Shown: positions 2,610-21,156 of the stretch, piece after piece
How the letters are laid out: each line of letters starts with the position of its first letter
How positions within the stretch are numbered: position 1 is the stretch's first letter
NCBI GenBank assembly: GCA_048213135.1
Contig: PS015097.1
Coordinates: 326,678-390,677 of the forward strand
Source of the DNA: Reclinomonas americana ATCC 50394
Lineage: Eukaryota
Direction of reading: 5' to 3'
DNA length: 64,000 nt
The notes under the pieces: generated by a model
The model's input: only the letters and a program-made list of their open reading frames with translations
The model's database searches: none
What the model was told of the DNA's origin: nothing
Position numbers and translations under genes: made by a program

Positions 2610-5600
2610 ATGGTAATGGACGCTCAATCATCACTCCACACAAGACACACACAGACACGCGCGCACACTACATTCACACTCACACACACTAACGTACGCA
2701 CACTTTGTCTCTCTCTCTCTCTCTCTCTCTGTCTGCATAACTCGCATATTCTCACGTTGAGCATCACAAGAAGAATGTGTCTCTCACTCTCCTCATCTTC
2801 CCCTCCTCTCTCTCACACACACAGGGCGACTCACTCACACTCCAGCTGTCGCCTGAGATGCACGGCGTTGATGCGGGCGATGTGGCTTCAGTTGCGTCGC
2901 CTATTTATCTGTCTGTCTGTTTGTCTTTTGTGACATGTGAGCGCGTCACTCCACTGAGAGCGCGCGCGTGTGTGTGTGAGAGAGAGAAAGACGAGAGTGT
3001 CTGTGTGTGTGGCCTCTCACCTCCCAGCTCTTTGAGTGTGTGAGTGAGGATGTGGAGGATTAGGCGCGCGCGTGCTGTCTTTCACGGGCATGGGCATGTC
3101 GCCCTCGCTCTCCGTGTCACACACGCGCTCACTCTTCTGGCTCGTGATGCACGAGTCTTTGCTCTGTTTGTGTCATGATTCTTCATGTATTGTTCGATAT
3201 TTTCCGATCATTATCCGCGCCTCAAGAGATTTTTAACTTTTTTCTGTGTCTTCTGTGTGTGTGTGTGTGTGTCTTGTGTGCAGCCGGCACCGCCCACATT
3301 CATGGTGTTTCCGAGCAGTCGATTAGCGCAGCAATTTCGCGGCGAGAAGCGAGGCGAGCTGGACCCGGTTCGTTTTTTTCTTTCCTCCGCGCGTTTGTCT
3401 TTCTTTCCTGCGTCTCACACTTGGTCGCCCAGAACATCACCCTCGCGCCCTTTGATCACGAGTCACCGCCCGGCAACATTCAAGTGTTCCACGCCGGCCG
3501 CAACATTCGTCTGTCCATTCAGCGTGTGGTCCGCGAAGCCTTTTCGCCGTGCTTTGTGTTTCTCCTGGAGAGCAGTTGCGTGTGTTTCTGCTGTTTGTGG
3601 ATTGCACAGGCGTATCCGTCTCTGACGCACGCACAGCGTTCACACGAGGTCCCAACCCGCATCTCGCCGCTCCGTTTGTAGTGGAGACGGCCACGGCGCC
3701 GTATGACACGCGCGGATACATTGAGCGCACGTTTTACACGTCGTACCGCGACACCAAGACGCCGCCGATTATTTTCTCGTTTGCCGCCGACAACACGCGC
3801 CCCGATCGTTCCGAGTTGGTGGTGCGCGTCGGTCACTGCACGGGCTACTCGAAGCAGTCGGCGATTTTGTACATTTGCGTCATCTCTGCCGATGGCTCGC
3901 TGGCGGTGGTGTCCGAGGCGTTCCGCACGTCGCGCCGGAAACCGCCGAAAATCAACGAGCTGCCGCCGTTCATCGACGTGAACATTACGCAGTTCATTGC
4001 GCCCACCGTGTACGACAGCATGTCCACACGGAAATGGGTGCACGGTCAGTTCGACTATCAGAATCCACGAGGTGAGAAATGATCAACGAAGTGGTGGTGA
4101 CGCTGATCTTTGCTCCCCCTCTCGCTGTGCTCTCCTTCTCGCTGTGCTCTCCTTCTCGCTGTGCTCTCCCTCTCGCTCTGCTCCCTCTCGCTCTGCCCCC
4201 TCTCGCTCTGCCCCCTCTCGCTCTGCTCCCCCTGTCGCTCTGCTCTCCCTCTCGCTCTGCTCTCCCTCTCGCTCTTCTCCCCCTCTCTCTGTTCCCTCTC
4301 TCTGTTCCCTCTCGCTCTGCTCCCTGTCGCTCTGCTCCCCCTCTCGCTCTGCTCCCCTCTCGCTCTGCTCCCCTCTCNNNNNNNNNNNNNNNNNNNNNNN
4401 NNNNNNNNNNNNNNNNNNNNNNNNNNNNNNNNNNNNNNNNNNNNNNNNNNNNNNNNNNNNNNNNNNNNNNNNNNNNNNNNNNNNNNNNNNNNNNNNNNNN
4501 NNNNNNNNNNNNNNNNNNNNNNNNNNNNNNNNNNNNNNNNNNNNNNNNNNNNNNNNNNNNNNNNNNNNNNNNNNNNNNNNNNNNNNNNNNNNNNNNNNNN
4601 NNNNNNNNNNNNNNNNNNNNNNNNNNNNNNNNNNNNNNNNNNNNNNNNNNNNNNNNNNNNNNNNNNNNNNNNNNNNNNNNNNNNNNNNNNNNNNNNNNNN
4701 NNNNNNNNNNNNNNNNNNNNNNNNCCCTCCTCCCTCCCTCCCTCCCCTCCCTCCTCTCCCCTCCCCTTCCCCTCCCCCTCCCCCCTTCCCCTCACACCCC
4801 CCTCCCTTTCCTCTCTTGCAGAAGCCTCGGCCGACATTGGTTCGGTGGCCTTCCACTCCCCACTGGTGACCTCGCCCATGGGCGTCGGACCGATGCACTA
4901 CGCACAGTCGGTGATGCTGCCGGCGTACTCACAGTCGGCACCGGCGACCTCGAACCTCATGCACTACATGGGCGGCGGCGGCGGCGGCGGTGCCAGTGCC
5001 GCCGGCATGATGGCGGGCGCGGCGGCCGGCATGGCCGGCGTCGGAGTCGGCGCCGCGGTCATGTCCCATCACCACCTCCATCACCACCACCCCGGTTTTC
5101 ACACCGGCAGCGGCAGCTACGCCTCGAGTCACGCCGAGTCCATTGACGAGGACGAGAGTGGAAGTGGTATCGGTGGTGGTGGCGGCGGTGGTGGTGACGA
5201 AAGCGACATGCTCTACGCACACGGAGGACCGAGTGACTACTCGCAGCCGCTCGTGTCGCTTCCGCCACAATTCAGCATGCGCAACGGTCTCCGCATGCCG
5301 ACGGTGAAGAACCCGCGAGGCGGCGACGGCTCTCCAACCGCCGCCATGTTGGCGACTGGCCACTACTCGACAACGACCACGACGACCACCACACCCACCG
5401 CATCCTCATCGGTCACCGCAGTCGCCAACAGCCCCAACATGTTCACCGGGCCGTCCATTCCTGGCGCCTTGATGGGACCGCCTGGATCGACCCGCGCCGT
5501 GGCCGCCGTCTCCATGTCGATGGGACCGCCGCCACCCATGACGCCACCTCGACAGAATCGTCACGCGCCGCCGTTTGTGGCGCCCATCCCCATTCCGATT

Positions 5601-6478
5601 GGCGGCTCTGGTGGACCCGGCACTCCAGGCACGCCGTCTTCGGTGCCTGGCACACCGTCGTCGCCTGCTCTCGGTGAGCACCCGTTCCTGTTGATCCTGA
5701 TTGCTGTTATATGTTGTGGCTGACGCGCAGTGCGTGCAGGTCGATCGGATTCCTGGGGTGACTTGGCGGGCACGCCGACCAGTCGCGGCGCGGGTGCGAA
5801 TAGTGGCGCCGATCCGAGTCGCCGTTCGTCCAGTTCGTCGTCGTCGCCGCGCCCGGACGGCGAAAGTGCTCTCGGAGAGGGAGTGCTCGGCGACGAGCTG
5901 GAGGGCTTTGAGCCGCCGCGAACATGGGGCGGTCGTCCGTTTTCCGTGTTTCACACGTTCGGCAGCGAGGGCGGGTCGTCGCCGCCGCCGCCTGTGTTGG
6001 CCGGTGGCGGCGTGTTTGGCCAGCACGCACAACATCACCATCATCACCACCACCACGACGACCACTTTGACGGCAGTGCGATGGAGATGCACATGGATCT
6101 GGGTCAGGAGGATGACCATCTTCGTAGTCAACAGCCACAACAACATCACCACCATCACCACCACCATCATCACCATCACCTCGATCAGTCACATGGTCGA
6201 CCTGTGCTGTCCACGGGTGGTGGTGGCGGTGGAGGAGGGGGCGTCGGTGGAGGAGGCGGCGGTGGTACTGGTGGCGGAGTGCTGCACGAGGTGCGACCAA
6301 GTCAGTTGTGTTGTCGACGTATGGACGTCTCACTCATTGTTCCTCGGGTGCAGCGTCACGGATTCGGTGGTGGCGACCTGTTCCCCTCCAGTGAGGAGTA
6401 TTACCACCAGGAGCCGTTGACTCCCGTGTTGCCCATGGAGTCCAGCGGCGGCGAGCAAGGTATGTGGATCTCGGAAAA

Positions 6479-6549
<71 letters not shown>

Positions 6550-7077
6550 NNNNNNNNNNNNNNNNNNNNNNNNNNNNNNNNNNNNNNNNNNNNNNNNNNN
6601 NNNNNNNNNNNNNNNNNNNNNNNNNNNNNNNNNNNNNNNNNNNNNNNNNNNNNNNNNNNNNNNNNNNNNNNNNNNNNNNNNNNNNNNNNNNNNNNNNNNN
6701 NNNNNNNNNNNNNNNNNNNNNNNNNNNNNNNNNNNNNNNNNNNNNNNNNNNNNNNNNNNNNNNNNNNNNNNNNNNNNNNNNNNNNNNNNNNNNNNNNNNN
6801 NNNNNNNNNNNNNNNNNNNNNNNNNNNNNNNNNNNNNNNNNNNNNNNNNNNNNNNNNNNNNNNNNNNNNNNNNNNNNNNNNNNNNNNNNNNNNNNNNNNN
6901 NNNNNNNNNNNNNNNNNNNNNNNNNNNNNNNNNNNNNNNNNNNNNNNNNNNNNNNNNNNNNNNNNNNNNNNNNNNNNNNNNNNNNNNNNNNNNNNNNNNN
7001 NNNNNNNNNNNNNNNNNNNNNNNNNNNNNNNNNNNNNNNNNNNNNNNNNNNNNNNNNNNNNNNNNNNNNNNNNNNNN

Positions 7078-7113
<36 letters not shown>

Positions 7114-7231
7114 ATGACGAGAGTGAAAGAGAGAGAGAGAGCACGCAGAGTCGACCTTGTCTCTCTCGCTCACTCTCTCTACTTCTCACACATACACTGT
7201 CTCTGTCTGTTTCATGCTCTCTCTCTCTGTT

Positions 7232-7279
<48 letters not shown>

Positions 7280-8538
7280 TGCGTGTCTCCCGTGAACTTA
7301 CTTCCTCTTTCTTTCTCACTGTCAATCTCCAACTGTACTGTCACTTTGTCTGTCACTTTCTGTGTCTCTCTTTTATCTCTTTTATGCATGTCTCTCTCGC
7401 TTGCTGTCTTCTCTCCTTCAGTCTCTTTGTCTCTGTCTTTCCGTGTCTCTCACTCTCTCTTTTTCTCACTCTTTATCTCTGTCTCTCTCACTCTCCTCTC
7501 TCTCACTCTCTCTTTTCTCTGTCTCATTTTCTCTTGATGTCTCTCTCTCACTCACCCCACTCTCTTCCTATGTCACTCTTGTCAATCTCCTTTACGGGCA
7601 TGTCTCTCTCGCTCGCATTCTTTCTCTCCTTCAGTCTCCTCATCTTCTCTGTCTCTCCGTGTCTCTGTCTCTCTCTCTCTCGCCCACTCTCTCCCCTCTC
7701 GCTCTGCATGTGTCTCTGTCTTTTCTCTTGATGTCTCTCTCTCACCCCACTCACTTTCTCTGCCTCTCTGTTTGTCTCTTTTACATGCGTCTCTCTCGCT
7801 CACTTTCTTTCACTTGTTCAGCCTCCTTATTTTCTCACTCTCTCTCTCTGTATGTCCCTGTCGGTCTTCCTCTCCGCGTCTGTCTCATTCTGTCTACGTG
7901 TCTCTCACTCTCTCGTCTCAGTCACTGTCCTCTTTTGTCTGTCTCTTTTCCCGTGCATCTCTCTTTTCTCTTTCTCTCTCTCTCTCTCCCTTCCCCTCCC
8001 CTCCCCTCCCCTCCCTCCCCTCCCTCCCTCCTCCTCCCCTCCCTCCCCCCCCCCCCCTTTTTGCGTCTCACAATGCGGCAGGTGGCGAATCGAGCGGCGT
8101 GCAACACGCGTCGGATCTCGCCGAATGGCACATGCGAGTCGACCCGGCGGAGAAGCTGAGCAAAGGCCACCTGGTTGGCGTTCACAAGAAAGGTGCGGGG
8201 AGAGGAACAAAGAGAGGCTGGCTGACCTGTCTGCGGTTTCTCAAAGAAAAAAACATGCATGGGTGAACGCAGGTGCCATTTCCAAGCGCACAGCCGGCTG
8301 TTTGTGGCTCGCCATTGTGGCCTCGGATCCACTACTCACCGGCACGGGATATCGCGAGAATGTGCGACTGGAGGATGGCAATGCGGTGGCATACATCGGG
8401 CAGGCACCGTGCTATGTGCGAGCCACTGGTCCACCTCGCACCGGCGACCTGCTTACCGCCTCTGGTTTCAACGACGGCACCGCCCGTGTGTTGGGCTTTG
8501 GTGAAGCCACGCCAATTCCACCAGTCGGTCGAGTACTC

Positions 8539-8633
<95 letters not shown>

Positions 8634-9510
8634 GTCGTCGTCGTCGTTCGGTTGGTTGGGTGGTGGTGGTGGTAGTCGTACGTACGACGTACGTACGTAG
8701 TAGGTAGGTAGGTAGGTCGGTTACGTTGGTACGTAGTNNNNNNNNNNNNNNNNNNNNNNNNNNNNNNNNNNNNNNNNNNNNNNNNNNNNNNNNNNNNNNN
8801 NNNNNNNNNNNNNNNNNNNNNNNNNNNNNNNNNNNNNNNNNNNNNNNNNNNNNNNNNNNNNNNNNNNNNNNNNNNNNNNNNNNNNNNNNNNNNNNNNNNN
8901 NNNNNNNNNNNNNNNNNNNNNNNNNNNNNNNNNNNNNNNNNNNNNNNNNNNNNNNNNNNNNNNNNNNNNNNNNNNNNNNNNNNNNNNNNNNNNNNNNNNN
9001 NNNNNNNNNNNNNNNNNNNNNNNNNNNNNNNNNNNNNNNNNNNNNNNNNNNNNNNNNNNNNNNNNNNNNNNNNNNNNNNNNNNNNNNNNNNNNNNNNNNN
9101 NNNNNNNNNNNNNNNNNNNNNNNNNNNNNNNNNNNNNNNNNNNNNNNNNNNNNNNNNNNNNNNNNNNNNNNNNNNNNNNNNNNNNNNNNNNNNNNNNNNN
9201 NNNNNNNNNNNNNNNNNNNNNNNNNNNNNNNNNNNNNNNNNNNNNNNNNNNNNNNNNNNNNNNNNNNNNNNNNNNNNNNNNNNNNNNNNNNNNNNNNNNN
9301 NNNNNNNNNNNNNNNNNNNNNNNNNNNNNNNNNNNNNNNNNNNNNNNNNNNNNNNNNNNNNNNNNNNNNNNNNNNNNNNNNNNNNNNNNNNNNNNNNNNN
9401 NNNNNNNNNNNNNNNNNNNNNNNNNNNNNNNNNNNNNNNNNNNNNNNNNNNNNNNNNNNNNNNNCGGTACGTACGTACGTCGTCGTCGTACGTCGTCGTC
9501 GTACGTACGT

Positions 9511-9574
<64 letters not shown>

Positions 9575-9578
9575 ACGT

Positions 9579-9641
<63 letters not shown>

Positions 9642-11480
9642 ATTCATCGCGCAAGCGTTTCTATACAACACTCATCCCTCGTTAATTCTCTCTGCTCATA
9701 GCCGGTGGAATCGGAGCGCGCTCAGAGATCCACTACAGGCTCATCGCCCCCGTCATCCCCACCGCCATCGTCGTTGCTGGTCAATGTGCCACCACTGCCG
9801 AGGAGTCACATCCCGCTGGCGGAGGACGCCGCGCAGGCGCTGCTGCAGTCGTTGACGGGTGGTGGCAGTGGTTCGGGTGTGGATGTGGTGGCTCTTGTCG
9901 GCTTGCCGGGTTCTGGGAAGAGCACCTTTGCGTCGGCTGTGGTGCGGCTACCGCAGGTCGCTGCGGTGTTCACGGATGGAGTGTTTTGGATTCGTGCCGG
10001 TCGCAATGCGGACCCGCTGGTTCTTCATCGTCGCTTGTGCGACGTGGCCTCGCTGCGTGCAATATCCGAGCAGGCCACAGATGTGGATAGTTCGCGTGAC
10101 GAGCTGCGACAGCGACTAGAGGGTCGACGCTGCTTGGTGAGACGTTCATTGACAGTGTGTGCTTAGATATGCGTAGATCACTGAACGAGTCTGGCAGATT
10201 GTGGTCGACGACGTGTGGGAGTCCATTGTGTTGTATTCGTTGTCGCTCGGCCTGCCGGGTGTGACATTGCTGGTGACCACGTCCCTACGAGACACGGTGC
10301 GAGCTGCCGGTGCCGCTGTCATCAGCATGCCTGTGATGAGCGTGGAGCAGGGCGTCGAATTGCTGCGTCTGGTCGGCGATCGCACAGACAGTTGTGTTCA
10401 CTTGCCTCCTTTGTTTGTGTGGCGTTGCGTTATTGTTGACTCGTGTGTGTCACAGAAGCGTGGGACGATCCAGCCAATCCACTGCGCCTGCTCTTCCACG
10501 TGTGTGCGACGCGCCTCGTGCGACGATGCGGTGTGCTGCCGGCCGCAGTGGTGGCACTGGGCATGCACCTGCGTGACCGCCCGCTGGAGGAGTGGGACGA
10601 GTGTGTGCACATGCTGGAGTGTGTGTGCACGTCGCCATTTTTCGACGCCGAAAGTGCCGTGTCGTCAGGAGTGGCTCCCACGTGCGCCACTGCGGAGCTG
10701 AGCGAGGAGATTCGTCAGCGAATCGGGCGTGAACTGTTCCCCTTTGATGCACTGCTCGGTACGCTCGACGCGGCCTCTCGCCGTGCCTACCTCTCCCTGG
10801 CTCTGCTGCCGGCATTCCAGCTCATCAGTGGTGAGTACCCCTTTTTCCCCCCGCACTGGTTGCACGAGGGAGGTCTCGCTTCTCACCAAGCAAACAGAGA
10901 CGGTGCTGAAGAGCATGTGGGAATCGATTGGACGATTCAGCAAACTCGTTCGGTCGCTGGAGAGCTGCTGCCTGTTGGAGCGAGTTATGGTCAGTGGCAG
11001 TGAGCGTCACTCGACGACGACCACGATTGCCACGTATGCGCTGCGCTGTCCGCTGCAATGGGTGGCGCTCAAGTCTGCATGGCACTCAATGCCATCGCTG
11101 TGTGCCGGCGTCACCATCTCGCCGCCATTGGCGACCGTGCTCGCAGCGCTGCCGGAGGTGGCCACCAGTGACACGAGCATGGCCACCGACTGGGAGCAGG
11201 CACGACGGTCCGTTTCGGCGGGGTGTCTTTTGCCGCTCCCCGAGCAGGTGAGTTCGTATGTGCGAGAGAGAGCTGAGGAGATAGGAAAGGGACGTGCTCA
11301 TTGAGTCGTTGATTGCAGCCGGCGACTGTCAGAGCCGATGGGATGGCTCTGCTGACAGCCGAACTTGTGGCCCTCGGCGGCGCGCACATGCGCAAGACAC
11401 AGTCGGACCGCAGCATGCTGTCGGCTTCCGTGCGTCGTCGTTCGTCCTTTGATCAAGATCTCCCACTCGGTCGTTCGTAG
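2610..11480 (+). CDS. Multidomain protein: putative Ig-fold (CSL/CudA/Rel-like) DNA-binding domain + His/Gly/Pro-rich region + Peptidase_G2-like autocleavage domain + NB-ARC ATPase
   Basis: Reconstructed exons 2610-2612 (ATG only), 2825-2890, 3284-3367, 3433-3523, 3610-4071, 4822-5673, 5740-6459 (possible in-frame intron about 6290-6353), 8082-8192, 8273-8540, [N-gap], 9702-10136, 10198-10390, 10456-10830, 10898-11247, 11319-11480 (TAG). Splice phases agree at every junction except 8540/9702, which spans an N-gap. Motifs: LAQQFRGEKR...VSEAFRTSRRKP; SDLAEW...GDLLTAS..G.A..VGRVL; GLPGSGKS, LIVVDDVW, LLVTT, CGVLPAAV. Confidence 0.7.
4115..4377. repeat. Intronic short-unit repeat (CCCTCTCGCTCTGCT)n, about 15 bp
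   Basis: Directly visible at the start of the intron before an N-gap. Confidence 0.9.
6481..7275. repeat. (GA)n tract, N-gap, then (CT)n tracts within one intron
   Basis: Directly visible. Confidence 0.95.
8541..9640. repeat. Compound microsatellite (GT)n-(GTC)n-(GTAC)n flanking an N-gap
   Basis: Directly visible. Confidence 0.95.
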
Positions 11481-12649: not shown

Positions 12650-13778
12650 TCACTTCAACACTTCGGGTACGCGGATCTCGCCGACGCTGTACGTCTGCGC
12701 GGTGCCTCCCAGTAGCACGCGATCGCCGTCCAGACGGAGACGAAGGAACGAATAGCCGCGACGCCGCGAGGACTGGCAGGCGCGAACTTCCGAGCGCCCG
12801 AGTCGTGCGGCCCAGAACGGCGCAAGGGTGCAGTGCACCGATCCAGTGGCGGGGTCCTCGGGTATGCCTGGTGGGATTGTGTCAGCATGTAACAAACCGC
12901 ATGAGCAGCAGAGGCGAACCTATCGAGGGAACAAAGAACCGCGACACAAAGTCAACTCCTGCACGAAGAGCAAGCATTTTAGCGCAGGTTCGCGTGCAGA
13001 ACCAGCAGGCTTCCACTCACCCTTGTCGGCGGCCAGTGCCTCCGAGGCCGGGGCGGTGACAACCACTCCAAATGGACGACCCTCCAGAGCGAGAATGGCC
13101 TCCATGTTGGGTTGCAGGCGCTCCAGTTGCTCCTGCGAGCGGACGAGCACCAGCACGTCACGAGCGCCACCAAACACCTGACAGCCTTCCGTGTCATCCC
13201 CAAGGCCCACAGCGGCTAGTGCAGGAGCTGCTTCTGCCGCTGGACTTGGTTCGGAGCGCGGCGGCATCGCAGGAAAGTCCATCCACAACAGGCTGTCGTC
13301 GTCACGTGACACCGTCTGCACGTGCATGTGGTGAGTTCCGCATGCTTCCCCGCTCTCCACCGTGGTCCGCTGCTCACCAGTACGCCACTGTGCCGTGTCT
13401 GGAAGCGCACTTGCGGCCGCGTGTACCCCAGCTCGGTCCACAGTACATGCGCCGCTGCCTGCGTTGCGTGACCGCACAGATTGACCTCGGCGATCGGCGT
13501 CATCCAACGCAAATGGAAGTCCACATCGTCGCGGCCGACAGCCGGTACGATGAACGCGGTCATGGGCATGCTGTTCTCCTCGGCAATGGCCTGCAGAGTG
13601 GCATCGGAGATCGGAAACTCACCTGTGCATGCACGTGCACACTCAGTGGATTGCTTTGGTAATCACAGTCATGACAGTTACCATCGGTGGCAGTCGGTTG
13701 CAGCATACTCACAGCGGCCGGGTTGCCACGAAAGACCTCATCGGCAAAGGCGTCGACAATGACAGACGGCAGGCGCAT
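12650..13778 (-). CDS. PhzF/PBLD family isomerase, paralogue B (altered SET motif)
   Basis: VDAFA...GNPAAV, EVNLCGHAT, DFVSRFF, EDPATGSVHC; five exons splice in frame. Confidence 0.9.
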
Positions 13779-13856: not shown

Positions 13857-15013
13857 TCAGCTGACCTCACGTACGCGGATCTCGCCGACGCTGTACGTTT
13901 GTGCGGTGCCTCCCAGTAGCACGCGATCGCCCTCCAGACGAAGTCGGAGGAACGCATGGCCTCGACGCCGCGAGTACTGGCAGGCGCGCACTTCTGGGCG
14001 CCCGAGTCGTGCGGCCCAGTATGGTGCCAGTGTGCAGTGCACCGAGCCGGTGACAGGGTCCTCGGGAACACCTGTGGATCATATCAGCAAGAGCTGTTTG
14101 TCACTGTTGGAGTACAGGAAGAACAACACACCCATGGCCGGGGCAAAGAACCGCGACACAAAGTCACTTCCTGCACACAACAATAGAGAGTAGCGTTCAG
14201 CGCAGGTGCCTCATGCAGAATCAGCACGCTTCCACGAACCCTTGTCGGCGGCCAGTGCCTCCGAAGCAGGGGCGGTGACAACCACCGCAAAGGGACGGCC
14301 GTCGAGAGCGAGAATGGCCTCCATGTTGGGTTGCAGGTGCTCCAGCTGCTCCTGCGAGCGGACGACCACCAGCACGTCACGAGCGCCACCAAACACCTGA
14401 CAGCCTTCGGTGTCGTCGCCCAGGCCCACAGCTGCCAACACGGGCGCGGCCTCGGCCGCCGGACTGGGCTCGGAACGTGCGGGCACTGCGGGGAAGTCCA
14501 TCCACAGCAGGCGGTCGTCATCCTCACCACCACGTGTCACCGTCTGCATGCAATTTTGCAAGGTGGTGAGCTCCGCATGCTTCTTCCGCGCTCTCCACTT
14601 GTCTGCTGCTCACCAGCACGCCACTACATCGCGTCTGGAAGCGCACTTGCTGCTTCGCGTAGTTGAACTCGGTCCACAGTGCATGCGCAGCCGCCAGAGT
14701 GGCATGACCGCACAGATTGACCTCGGCAGTCGGCGTCATCCAGCGCAAGTGATAATCAATGTCGTCGCGGCCGACAGCCGGCACGAGGAACGACGTCTCC
14801 GACAAGTTGTTCTCCTCGGCAATGGCCTGCAGAGTGGCATCGGAGACGGGATACTCGCCTGTGCGCGCACGCAATGAATGACTGACTGCATCCGCCGCGA
14901 TGGTCATCATGGTTACCGTCGGTGGCAGTCGGCTGCAGTACACTCACGGCGGCCGGGTTGCCACGGAAGACCTCATCGGCAAAGGCGTCGACAATCACGG
15001 AGGGCAGGCGCAT
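13857..15013 (-). CDS. PhzF/PBLD family isomerase, paralogue A
   Basis: VDAFA...GNPAAV, NLSETSF, EVNLCGHATLA, DFVSRFFAP, EDPVTGSVHC; same intron positions as paralogue B. Confidence 0.92.
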
Positions 15014-15254: not shown

Positions 15255-19006
<3,752 letters not shown>

Positions 19007-19754: not shown

Positions 19755-19992
19755 TCACTCGAGGAGGAAGAGTCGCGAGGAGATGTCGGCGACGATCCAG
19801 TCGATGCCGTCGGCGAGGCCGTCGCCCGTGACGGCACTGCACGGCACAATGTGCCAATGTCTGCTGCCACTGACCGCGCTCTCTTGCAAGCCGAGTGCCT
19901 CGGCGATCTCGTCGCTCGACAGCGCGCCACTCAGGTCTTGCTTGTTGGCAAAGATGAGCAGGGAGGCGCCGGCGAGTTTCTGCGCAAGGAGG

Positions 19993-20031
<39 letters not shown>

Positions 20032-21156
20032 TGAGTAAACATGCGGGGGCAGAAGGAACTGGCACAACACAAGAGCGAGAGGGACAAGGACACTGGCACA
20101 TCACTCACAAGCAAGCGAGGGTGCAACGAAGAGAGATTGACATCGAGAGAGAAGTAAGAGAGGGACAAGGACACTGGTACATCACAGAGTGGCACTCACA
20201 AGAGAGTAAGAGAGTGAGGGTACACCGAAGAGGGAAGGATCCTGATACTACCACGCCTTGGGTTGACGCGAGAGAAGAAGCACAAGGACGCTGGCAATCC
20301 TCTTACGAGCGAGGGCACAACGAAGAGAGAGACAAGGATCCTGATGCTGCCACGCCTTGGGTTGACGCGAGAGAAGAAGCACAAGGACGCTGGCAATCCT
20401 CTTACGAGCGAGGGTACAACGAAGAGGGAAGGAGCCTGATGCTACCACGCCTTGGGTTGACGCGAGAGAAGAAGCACTAAGACGCTGGCAGTCCTCTTGC
20501 AAGCGAGGGTGCAACAAAGAGAGACAAGGATCCTGATACTTCCACGCCTTCCGCTGAACACGGGAGAGAGACGCACCTCCTCCTTGAGCAGATTGTGCAG
20601 CTCCTCGCGACAATCCTGCAGGCGCATACGATCGGCCGAGTCGACGACCCACACCAGACCATCAGTCTGCTCAAAGTAGTTGCGCCAGTATGAGCGGATA
20701 GTCTGCTGACCGCCCACATCCCACACATTCAGCTTGAAGCTGTGCACCAAGCAAGTCAGTGCGTGTGCGATCATTGAAGACAACTGACGCGCGCACGCGC
20801 ACGCAAGATCGTACTTTTTGTATTCCAGTGTCTGGTGGTGGCAAAAGGTGAGTGAGTACGTGAGTCAATGAGTGTTTACAACAAAAGAAGAGTGGAGGGG
20901 AGAGTGGATACCTTGATGTTGAAGCCGAGTGTGGGTGAGATGGTGTCAATGGGCTCGCCGTTGAACTTCTTCACACATGTTGTCTTGCCTGCGTTGTCCA
21001 GACCACTGCCGACATAACACACAGAGAGTGTGAGAGATGAGAGGAGGGGTGTTGCGCTGGTGCGCGCGAAAACACAATGATCGTACAGAACAGCATGAGC
21101 AGGCGCATTTCCTTTTCTTTTTGCTTGAGCTTCTTGAGGATGGTGAGGAGTCCCAT
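19755..21156 (-). CDS. ARL2: ADP-ribosylation factor-like GTPase 2
   Basis: [60 protein letters not shown]; includes a 17-nt micro-exon (TLEYKN). Confidence 0.97.
20215..20550. repeat. Intronic minisatellite in ARL2, about 3.3 copies of a 95-99 bp unit
   Basis: Unit GGATCCTGAT..CCACGCCTTGGGTTGACGCGAGAGAAGAAGCAC.AGGACGCTGGCA.TCCTCTT..AGCGAGGG starts at 20237, 20336, 20431 and (partial) 20528. Confidence 0.9.

Follow-up and report, generated by a model that had tools for sequence, protein, structure and literature searches.

A stretch of 64,000 nucleotides from Reclinomonas americana ATCC 50394 (contig PS015097.1, positions 326,678 to 390,677 of the forward strand; hereafter the window, numbered from its first nucleotide) raises the question of whether a eukaryote has taken up a self-cleaving domain of the phage tail-spike type and, if so, from which source and for what use. 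A preliminary description of the sequence had proposed such a domain within an intron-containing eukaryotic gene, with its catalytic residues retained and with an old transfer from a phage or a bacterium as its origin. In the present analysis, positions 8082-8540 are read as two exons of a eukaryotic gene that encode the approximately 125-residue core of a compact Peptidase_G2-type domain. A probability of about 0.75 was assigned to this reading.

Exon and intron structure

The visible piece of the gene is made up of four features:

8082-8192, forward strand: exon 1, defined from sequence and translation, preceded by the acceptor cag (8079-8081) after a C/T tract
8111-8125, forward strand: Ser-Asp-Leu-Ala-Glu codons of exon 1 (Ser 8111-8113, Asp 8114-8116, Glu 8123-8125)
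8193-8272, forward strand: spliceosomal GT..AG intron of 80 nt, which shifts the frame by 2
8273-8540, forward strand: exon 2, translated as P0002, which encodes the beta-rich main part of the domain as far as V-G-R

Exon 1 starts in phase 1, and its final base is the first base of a Gly codon; its product comprises the last part of a conserved stretch located before the cleavage site, then S-D-L-A-E and the initial strands of the domain. On inspection of the sequence, no in-frame ATG was present ahead of S-D-L-A-E in exon 1, and since the exon opens at an acceptor, upstream exons must exist. The peptide S-D-L-A-E-W-H is encoded at 8111-8131, within exon 1, and exon 2 carries AIVASDPLLTG, NAVAYIGQAPCYV, PRTGDLLTASG, NDGTA and VGRVL before it terminates at the donor GT 8541, the start of a (GT)46 run. 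All of the peptide stretches quoted in the preliminary description were found at the positions given there, and its division of the domain by an intron at 8193-8272 was borne out: the intron is frame-shifting, homology is continuous across the junction, and the exon-1 frame, if left unspliced, encounters a stop at 8264-8266. The GC content of the intron was 0.525 compared with 0.618 for the exons. Together the two exons comprise approximately 125 codons that are free of stops and, apart from the intron, of frameshifts. The GC content at third codon positions (GC3) was 0.64 in both exons versus 0.63-0.65 in the NB-ARC exons that lie downstream.

Neither a further copy of the domain nor another homologous exon was detected in the window by tblastn of the spliced domain and eight relatives. 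Likewise, six-frame profile searches of the window, performed with an extended hidden Markov model (HMM) of the bacterial type and with an HMM of the cysteine-rich clade described below, returned the two exons only, with everything else at E>2.

Homology of the exons

Exon 2 was searched by exhaustive phmmer against 1.84 billion (1,835,955,588) representative proteins, and 36 proteins matched at E<=1e-3. Thirty-one belong to one family, with matches that cover nearly the whole of exon 2 and lie mostly near the C-termini of the proteins; the other five, long repeat proteins with many weak stretches, were set aside as spurious. Exon 2 alone obtained 35.9-43.5 bits against the 31 family members, compared with 44.9-73.0 bits for the spliced domain against the 29 that are not truncated. 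The addition of exon 1 contributed 20-30 bits against relatives, e.g. splicing raised the score against protein P0006 from 41.7 to 73.0 bits and that against P0010 from 39.7 to 72.2 bits, and the alignment crosses the splice junction with a single one-residue insertion. Furthermore, the spliced domain matched an HMM of the 31 relatives, from which the window was excluded, with 102.2 bits (E 1.9e-24, Z = 1,835,955,588). The rise in score upon splicing, the alignment through the junction and the 102.2-bit match indicate that both the intron and the homology are real.

A word-based search for exon 2 among longer proteins yielded 216 candidates, none of them at E<=0.01, and a phmmer search of exon 2 against the PDB yielded chance matches only (E 0.7-0.8). 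In a feature-based Atlas look-up, which was used as a lead only, exon 2 was nearest to viral clusters (0.97) and a Peptidase_G2 cluster (0.95).

Comparison with Peptidase_G2

The family was assigned by way of the relatives. Of the 31 relatives of exon 2, 22 matched PF11962 (Peptidase_G2, the intramolecular chaperone (IMC) autoproteolytic cleavage domain) at E<=1e-3, as did 21 of the 36 bacterial open reading frames (ORFs) that were scanned out of 87, and 10 of 22 further hits did so at E<=0.01. The matches of the relatives fall on two stretches of the profile, approximately positions 30-100 and 160-195, which is accounted for by an insertion of approximately 45 residues in phi29 gp12 that the compact family lacks. 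When the family alignment (119 rows, with the window as master) was compared by hhalign with phi29 gp12 residues 671-854, a match with a probability of 92.3% (E 5.6e-7, 89 columns) was obtained in which S-D-L-A-E falls exactly on S691-D692-F-A-E695 of gp12, where residues 686-700 contain W-S691-D692-F-A-E695-Y-F. A search of the PDB with the family profile (A1) by hmmsearch retrieved domain D4 of Dpo31 (28nb_A, E 0.01) and the gp12 C-terminus (3gqh_A, E 0.087). The fibre part of the same profile (positions 153-282) also matched the Bdellovibrio fibre proteins 8ond_A and 8ojn_C at E 4e-4; these matches rest on the N-terminal fibre repeat ...G.VGIGT..P...LHV... and not on the G2 domain.

At the level of structure, the close relative P0010 was folded with the family alignment and its domain reached a pLDDT (predicted local distance difference test score) of approximately 90. 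In a Foldseek search with this model the top matches were 3suc (E 2.0e-3) and 3gqh_A (E 3.9e-3; TM-score 0.48 on the target), the next match following at E 0.24 and none passing a line of E 1e-3. Peptidase_S74 was not matched in Pfam scans of the window pieces or of 100 relatives, and the motif here is D-x-A-E. Lack of any profile or structural match to G2/IMC domains had been named beforehand as the outcome that would overturn the assignment; that outcome did not occur, and the G2/IMC-type identity is supported by the hhalign comparison and by the PF11962 matches of the relatives.

Among 118 relatives, D, A and E of the motif are conserved at 99%, 98% and 97%, respectively. The window retains 24 of the 35 columns that are conserved in at least 80% of these relatives, including D, A and E and five near-invariant Gly or Asp residues. 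The P1 residue, which would precede the cut, is small across the family (G 53, A 45, S 10, N 6, C 1; n=115), and in the window it is Ser, as in phi29. On this basis the scissile bond is predicted to lie between Ser (8111-8113) and Asp (8114-8116), with Glu 8123-8125 as the predicted catalytic residue. A cut before Asp agrees with the chains of 3gqh_A, which begin at residue 692. The gp12 Glu is reportedly catalytic, and ATP is said to have a part in gp12. With regard to the proposed retention of catalytic residues, D, A and E of the motif are present in the window, with the Glu as the putative catalytic one. A cut before Asp also fits Dpo31, for which D4 is described as traced from Asp664 and as absent from the mature protein (PMC13317679).

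Relatives and origin of the domain

In order to place the domain among prokaryotic proteins, GTDB was scanned with one genome per prokaryotic species. The scan gave 248 pattern matches, of which 97 were confirmed as relatives and the best 80 of the 97 loci were kept; these best loci are distributed across many phyla, among them Bacteroidota, Planctomycetota, Acidobacteriota, Chloroflexota and Verrucomicrobiota. Every one of the 87 bacterial ORFs carries the domain near its C-terminus, after collagen, FG-GAP, beta-roll or bactofilin-like fibre parts and ahead of a coiled coil. At three Bacteroidota loci (L055:775-1281, L057:739-1323 and L061:776-1285) a small gene for a type IX secretion system (T9SS) C-terminal sorting domain is located directly upstream of the fibre gene, and a T9SS sorting-domain gene likewise occurs at L045:2-445, such loci belonging to Bacteroidota and Gemmatimonadota. 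Tandem paralogues, in which two adjacent ORFs each end in a G2-like domain, were observed at L040, L041, L042, L062, L063, L064 and L073.

The compact form was recovered from no isolated phage and, in a pattern-limited scan, from no IMG/VR contig. Phage-type Pfam families were found in none of 19 neighbouring ORFs at three Bacteroidota loci. When 50,697 phage records were searched with exon 2 by tblastn, three weak and unrelated places were returned, among them an endolysin (E 0.02) and a portal protein (E 3); the bacterial-type protein P0034 produced nothing at E<=1e-3 in the phage records, and the scan of IMG/VR with alignment A3 gave 91 pattern stretches, none of which was confirmed. The family is therefore described as being of the phage tail-spike type by fold and history, while its nearest kin are bacterial chromosomal surface-fibre genes.

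With P0013, P0010 and exon 2 as seeds, a profile search gathered 25 proteins, among which a cysteine-rich subset of 15 could be distinguished (2-5% Cys versus 0-0.5% in the bacterial type). D-F-A-E is present in 15/15 of these proteins and A-E-W-H in 13/15, and the window has the His of A-E-W-H and the Tyr of V-A-Y in common with them. Three 90% clusters of this clade contain EukProt entries of Picozoa sp. COSAG02 or COSAG06. In a tree of 117 rows the window grouped with P0010 and P0013 with a Shimodaira-Hasegawa-like approximate likelihood ratio test (SH-aLRT) value of 95. In a tree of 136 rows the window and the 15 cysteine-rich proteins fell on one side (SH-aLRT 93), with the window as sister to the 15, and a careful search of 66 rows, in which 18 randomly chosen ORFs stood for the 87 from the bacterial loci, recovered the same split with an ultrafast bootstrap (UFBoot) value of 96 and an SH-aLRT value of 97, the bootstrap being not fully settled. 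The five repeat proteins, the truncated P0021 and P0028 and the near-duplicates P0039, P0040, P0041, P0058 and P0064 were left out of the trees, as was P0059 from the 66-row tree. These results suggest that the window domain belongs to a cysteine-rich, eukaryote-associated clade nested among bacterial fibre-like C-terminal domains, and such nesting points to a bacterium, or a virus with a fibre gene of this kind, as the source. Acquisition from bacteria appears most likely, and the intron would presumably have been gained after the transfer. As to the earlier proposal of an old transfer from a phage or bacterium, the nearest kin are bacterial, and neither an isolated phage nor, in the pattern-limited scan, an IMG/VR contig was matched.

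Genomic surroundings and the downstream NB-ARC exons

Six runs of N interrupt the window, which is a gapped scaffold, and both exons lie on an island of 1,660 bases (7078-8737) between two of these runs. The following features flank them:

6550-7077: assembly gap of 528 N, with (GA)n on both sides (6478-6549 and 7078-7141)
7078-8081, forward strand: presumed intron, approximately 1 kb of C/T-rich low-complexity sequence, with the gap 6550-7077 on its left
8541-9701, forward strand: presumed intron or interval, with repeats, a 727-N gap (8738-9464) and an acceptor at 9700-9701
9702-11003, forward strand: NB-ARC ATPase exons with P-loop GLPGSGKST, kinase-2 and GLPL-like regions, separated by short introns

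Within 7078-8060, short-period arrays were observed, namely (CT)n, CTCCC x15 and units of 18-54 nt. No family profile match was obtained in any frame of 7078-8081, nor was a fibre-like exon found upstream of the domain by profile search, a region that includes the gap 6550-7077. Further upstream, two long open frames of low complexity on the forward strand (4725-5720 and 5724-6548) are marked by runs of His, Gly, Thr and Pro and matched no Pfam family. Each of the two gaps next to the exons is embedded in microsatellites that are common to its two flanks. Around the gap 8738-9464 the repeats run in mirror-symmetric order, with (GT)46, (TCG)n and (ACGT)-like repeats before the gap (8541-8737) and (ACGT)-like, (CGT)31 and (GT)30 repeats after it (9465-9640), which suggests a single microsatellite-filled intron.

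PF00931 (NB-ARC) was matched on 9702-10163 with 29.9 bits (cutoff 23.5; E 4.1e-7) over profile positions 6-104, and the next two ORFs continue the profile at positions 104-169 and 182-222 with weaker scores. The first NB-ARC exon starts at an acceptor and has no ATG ahead of the P-loop. The introns observed in this part are a GT..AG intron of 40 nt at 10137-10176 and one of approximately 65 nt near 10391-10455. An alternative donor at 8545, within the (GT)n run, would give an in-frame join to 9702. Judged from these sequence features, the odds are about even that the NB-ARC exons and the G2-type exons would form one gene and protein. In a word-filtered search for the NB-ARC exon among longer proteins, two TIR/NB-ARC/TPR proteins were found and neither lists PF11962; the failure to find a precedent for a G2 and NB-ARC fusion is weak evidence given the word filter.

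On the reverse strand of the window, an MCM helicase gene (15392-18364) is present as at least six frame-shifted ORF pieces (MCM_N, MCM_OB, three MCM P-loop parts and MCM_lid), and since the pieces are in different frames, several short introns interrupt it. Two tandem PhzF-like (PF02567) copies, each in at least two ORF pieces, are located at 12923-13662 and 14214-14943, and an exon of an Arf-family small GTPase (PF00025, E 1.6e-17) at 19758-20195. With split MCM, Arf and PhzF-like genes and matching GC3, the surroundings of the G2-type exons are eukaryotic, which together with the real intron supports the earlier attribution of the domain to an intron-containing eukaryotic gene.

Architecture of the Picozoa-type relatives

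In the cysteine-rich relatives the domain is internal, and no fibre was found ahead of it. All six proteins of this group that were long enough to judge (P0042, P0046, P0049, P0054, P0061 and P0064) have a transmembrane-like hydrophobic segment approximately 35-165 residues after the domain, and the part beyond that segment is cysteine-rich. By reading of the sequences, P0049, P0054 and P0061 open without a hydrophobic leader. The common order is an N-terminal part, a domain of the self-cleaving type, a single membrane segment and a C-terminal part.

Five proteins that form a Picozoa-type subfamily (P0054, P0061, P0062, P0063 and P0110; alignment A6) have in common a conserved N-terminal block with invariant R..G.D.W..SGG.KG....W..P..G...RYG, for which neither a Pfam family at E<=10, an Atlas cluster nor a relevant PDB sequence was found. 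As the block lies upstream of the cleavage site, it would be the released part. A suspected likeness of the block to a CG-1-like DNA-binding motif could not be supported and was dropped.

Comparison with known self-cleaving domains

The window family differs from phi29 gp12 (PF11962; PDB 3suc and 3gqh) in several respects. It is compact, in contrast to gp12 with its insertion of approximately 45 residues; in gp12 the domain ends the protein after a beta-helical spike, while in the window coding NB-ARC sequence may follow; and gp12 is a phage protein, whereas the window domain is eukaryotic and intron-split, with most of its relatives below the Pfam gathering threshold. Domain D4 of Dpo31 from the marine podovirus Carin-1 (PDB 28nb) is likewise a phage domain, a long gp12-like version at the C-terminus of a depolymerase (PMC13317679). 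D4 of gp12 and D4 of Dpo31 are described as auto-chaperones that are removed (PMC13317679, PMC4690869), and one of these sources describes the gp12 chaperone domain as beta-stranded, distinct from S74 chaperones and released after folding (PMC4690869). The bacterial fibre-like proteins carry the same compact domain and are nearest to the window by identity, at up to 46-48%. They have D-[YF]-A-E-W, G-D-V-V-G-V, S-x-x-P-I-V-L-G-N, G-Q-x-P-V-x-V-x-G-P-V and G-D-x-x-V-x-S-G-x-x-D-G-T-A motifs in common with the window family, and differ from the window in that their genes have no intron.

A functional parallel is offered by MYRF, in which trimerisation-dependent cleavage frees a transcription factor from the endoplasmic reticulum membrane. 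The MYRF domain is of the S74 type, and S74 catalysis proceeds by a Ser-Lys dyad. To our knowledge, MYRF is the one case in eukaryotes of a self-cleaving chaperone domain from phage tail spikes that has been studied well. S74 is an unrelated, structurally different family from the D-x-A-E domain of G2 and differs in catalytic type, so that the likeness would reflect independent recruitment and not homology. The order of parts described for MYRF, namely an N-terminal effector, a trimerising self-cleaving domain, a transmembrane segment and a luminal part (PMC3742440, PMC3828593), is the same as that in the cysteine-rich relatives of the window. A literature search of limited coverage found no papers on PF11962 or Peptidase_G2 in eukaryotes.

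Predicted trimer and proposed mechanism

For residues 88-245 of P0010, the prediction of a three-copy complex reached a score of 0.84 compared with 0.00 for the best of three controls. Of the proteins solved as pairs of one chain, 21 of 30 attained the score mark used, compared with none of 23 solved as single chains, a calibration on two copies from which a three-copy prediction differs. The trimer runs of P0010, which were performed without an alignment, share at least 89% of their contacts and have a partner pLDDT of at least 76, and residues 112-126 around the motif form part of the interface. Since trimers of gp12 and of Dpo31 D4 have been solved, the passing score of P0010 may reflect likeness or memory only.

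By homology, three copies of the domain would associate into a trimer in the protein encoded in the window as well, and in the assembled trimer the conserved Glu (8123-8125) may promote hydrolysis of the Ser-Asp bond (8113|8114). Such a cleavage would detach an N-terminal part, which is not seen in the window, from the domain together with any downstream part. Among the Picozoa-type relatives it would free the N-terminal part from its membrane anchor, as in MYRF. A wider proposal can be framed around this mechanism, in which G2-type domains would represent a second eukaryotic recruitment of a fibre-folding self-cleaving module, independent of MYRF, and would act as a switch that cleaves only after three chains have come together: in the Picozoa-type proteins it would release an N-terminal part from a single-pass membrane anchor, and in the present protein it may form one NLR-like (nucleotide-binding leucine-rich-repeat receptor) polypeptide with NB-ARC, in which it would release the N-terminal part or seed oligomerisation. 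This proposal is speculative and of low probability.

Alternative explanations

Several observations weigh against the assignment of the two exons to a eukaryotic gene with a Peptidase_G2-type domain. Scanned separately, the exon translations match no Pfam, PHROGs or NCBIfam profile even at E<=10, and most family members lie below the PF11962 gathering score of 25 bits, which only 9 of the 31 relatives and only 9 of the 36 scanned bacterial ORFs reach. The window is substituted at 11 of the 35 conserved columns of the 118 relatives, and the visible gene contains neither the conserved strands before the cleavage site nor the terminal strand after V-G-R; with no other family exon in any frame, these strands are either in the gaps or lost. 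A splice from 8540 to 9702 would be out of frame (phase 2 versus phase 0). The placement in the cysteine-rich clade could be the product of long-branch attraction, as suggested by three results: the window branch is the longest in every tree (1.85-2.47), its top identity (46-48%) is to P0009, which is not cysteine-rich, and it scores 82.0 bits on the cysteine-rich-clade HMM versus 102.2 bits on the mostly bacterial-type HMM. An early-branching member of the clade with ancestral residues would also explain the long branch, the identity to P0009 and the HMM scores.

The same divergence could mark a relic, in which the exons are the decaying remainder of a transferred fibre or IMC gene, untranslated or translated by accident. 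The differing conserved columns and the longest branch would fit such decay, as would the lack of a visible in-frame start, the lack of upstream or downstream family exons and the position on a 1.66-kb island between gaps with approximately 1 kb of low complexity on each side, compared with introns of 40-65 nt in the NB-ARC part. Against it, the 125 codons are stop-free, the splice sites are exact with the alignment preserved, D, A, E and the invariant Gly and Asp residues are retained, GC3 is as in the neighbouring coding exons, and the absent parts could sit in the 528-N and 727-N gaps; a relic is considered improbable. The domain could instead be kept for folding or oligomerisation and no longer cleave, e.g. 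by gathering three NB-ARC chains. Such a role would agree with the predicted P0010 homotrimer (0.84 versus 0.00, with the reservation that the solved D4 trimers may be remembered), with an NB-ARC exon that follows next downstream and has no start of its own, and with the changes at several conserved positions in the window. It would not readily account for an intact D-x-A-E, at 97-99% in the 118 relatives, or for D-F-A-E in every one of the 15 cysteine-rich proteins, a retention that would be difficult to understand if cleavage were not under selection, and it is considered rather unlikely. A very small chance was left for a bacterial or phage contig misplaced in a eukaryotic scaffold. The location of the exons on a short island flanked by N gaps and the bacterial type of the proteins nearest by identity would be expected in that case; contamination was rejected, however, on the grounds of a frame-shifting GT..AG intron with an in-frame stop inside the domain, where no prokaryotic ORF spans it, of microsatellites that run on across both gaps, and of GC3 values that match the neighbours.

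A further alternative is that of two separate genes: a G2-type gene of the Picozoa-type plan, with its later exons in the gap, may end and a separate NB-ARC gene begin within 8541-9701, a possibility rated slightly below an even chance. The transmembrane-like segment that follows the domain in 6/6 judgeable cysteine-rich relatives, the lack of NB-ARC in any relative found, the lack of a listed PF11962 in the two closest NB-ARC relatives and the out-of-frame splice from 8540 to 9702 all speak for two genes. One gene is favoured by the first NB-ARC exon, with its strong acceptor and no ATG before the P-loop, by the in-frame donor at 8545 and by the size of the 727-N gap, which, unless it is underestimated, would hardly accommodate a 3' end together with an intergenic region, a promoter and a first exon.

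Significance of the finding

If the two exons are a decayed remainder, they would represent a clean, intron-bearing trace of gene transfer from a bacterium to a eukaryote. If the domain is active, eukaryotes would have captured a molecular switch of this kind at least twice, and a small, portable, self-cleaving trimerisation unit would be at hand, which raises the question of which part is released in the membrane-anchored Picozoa-type proteins and beside the NB-ARC ATPase of the window. A eukaryote may thus have reused a folding module of phage and bacterial fibres as a protein-release switch.

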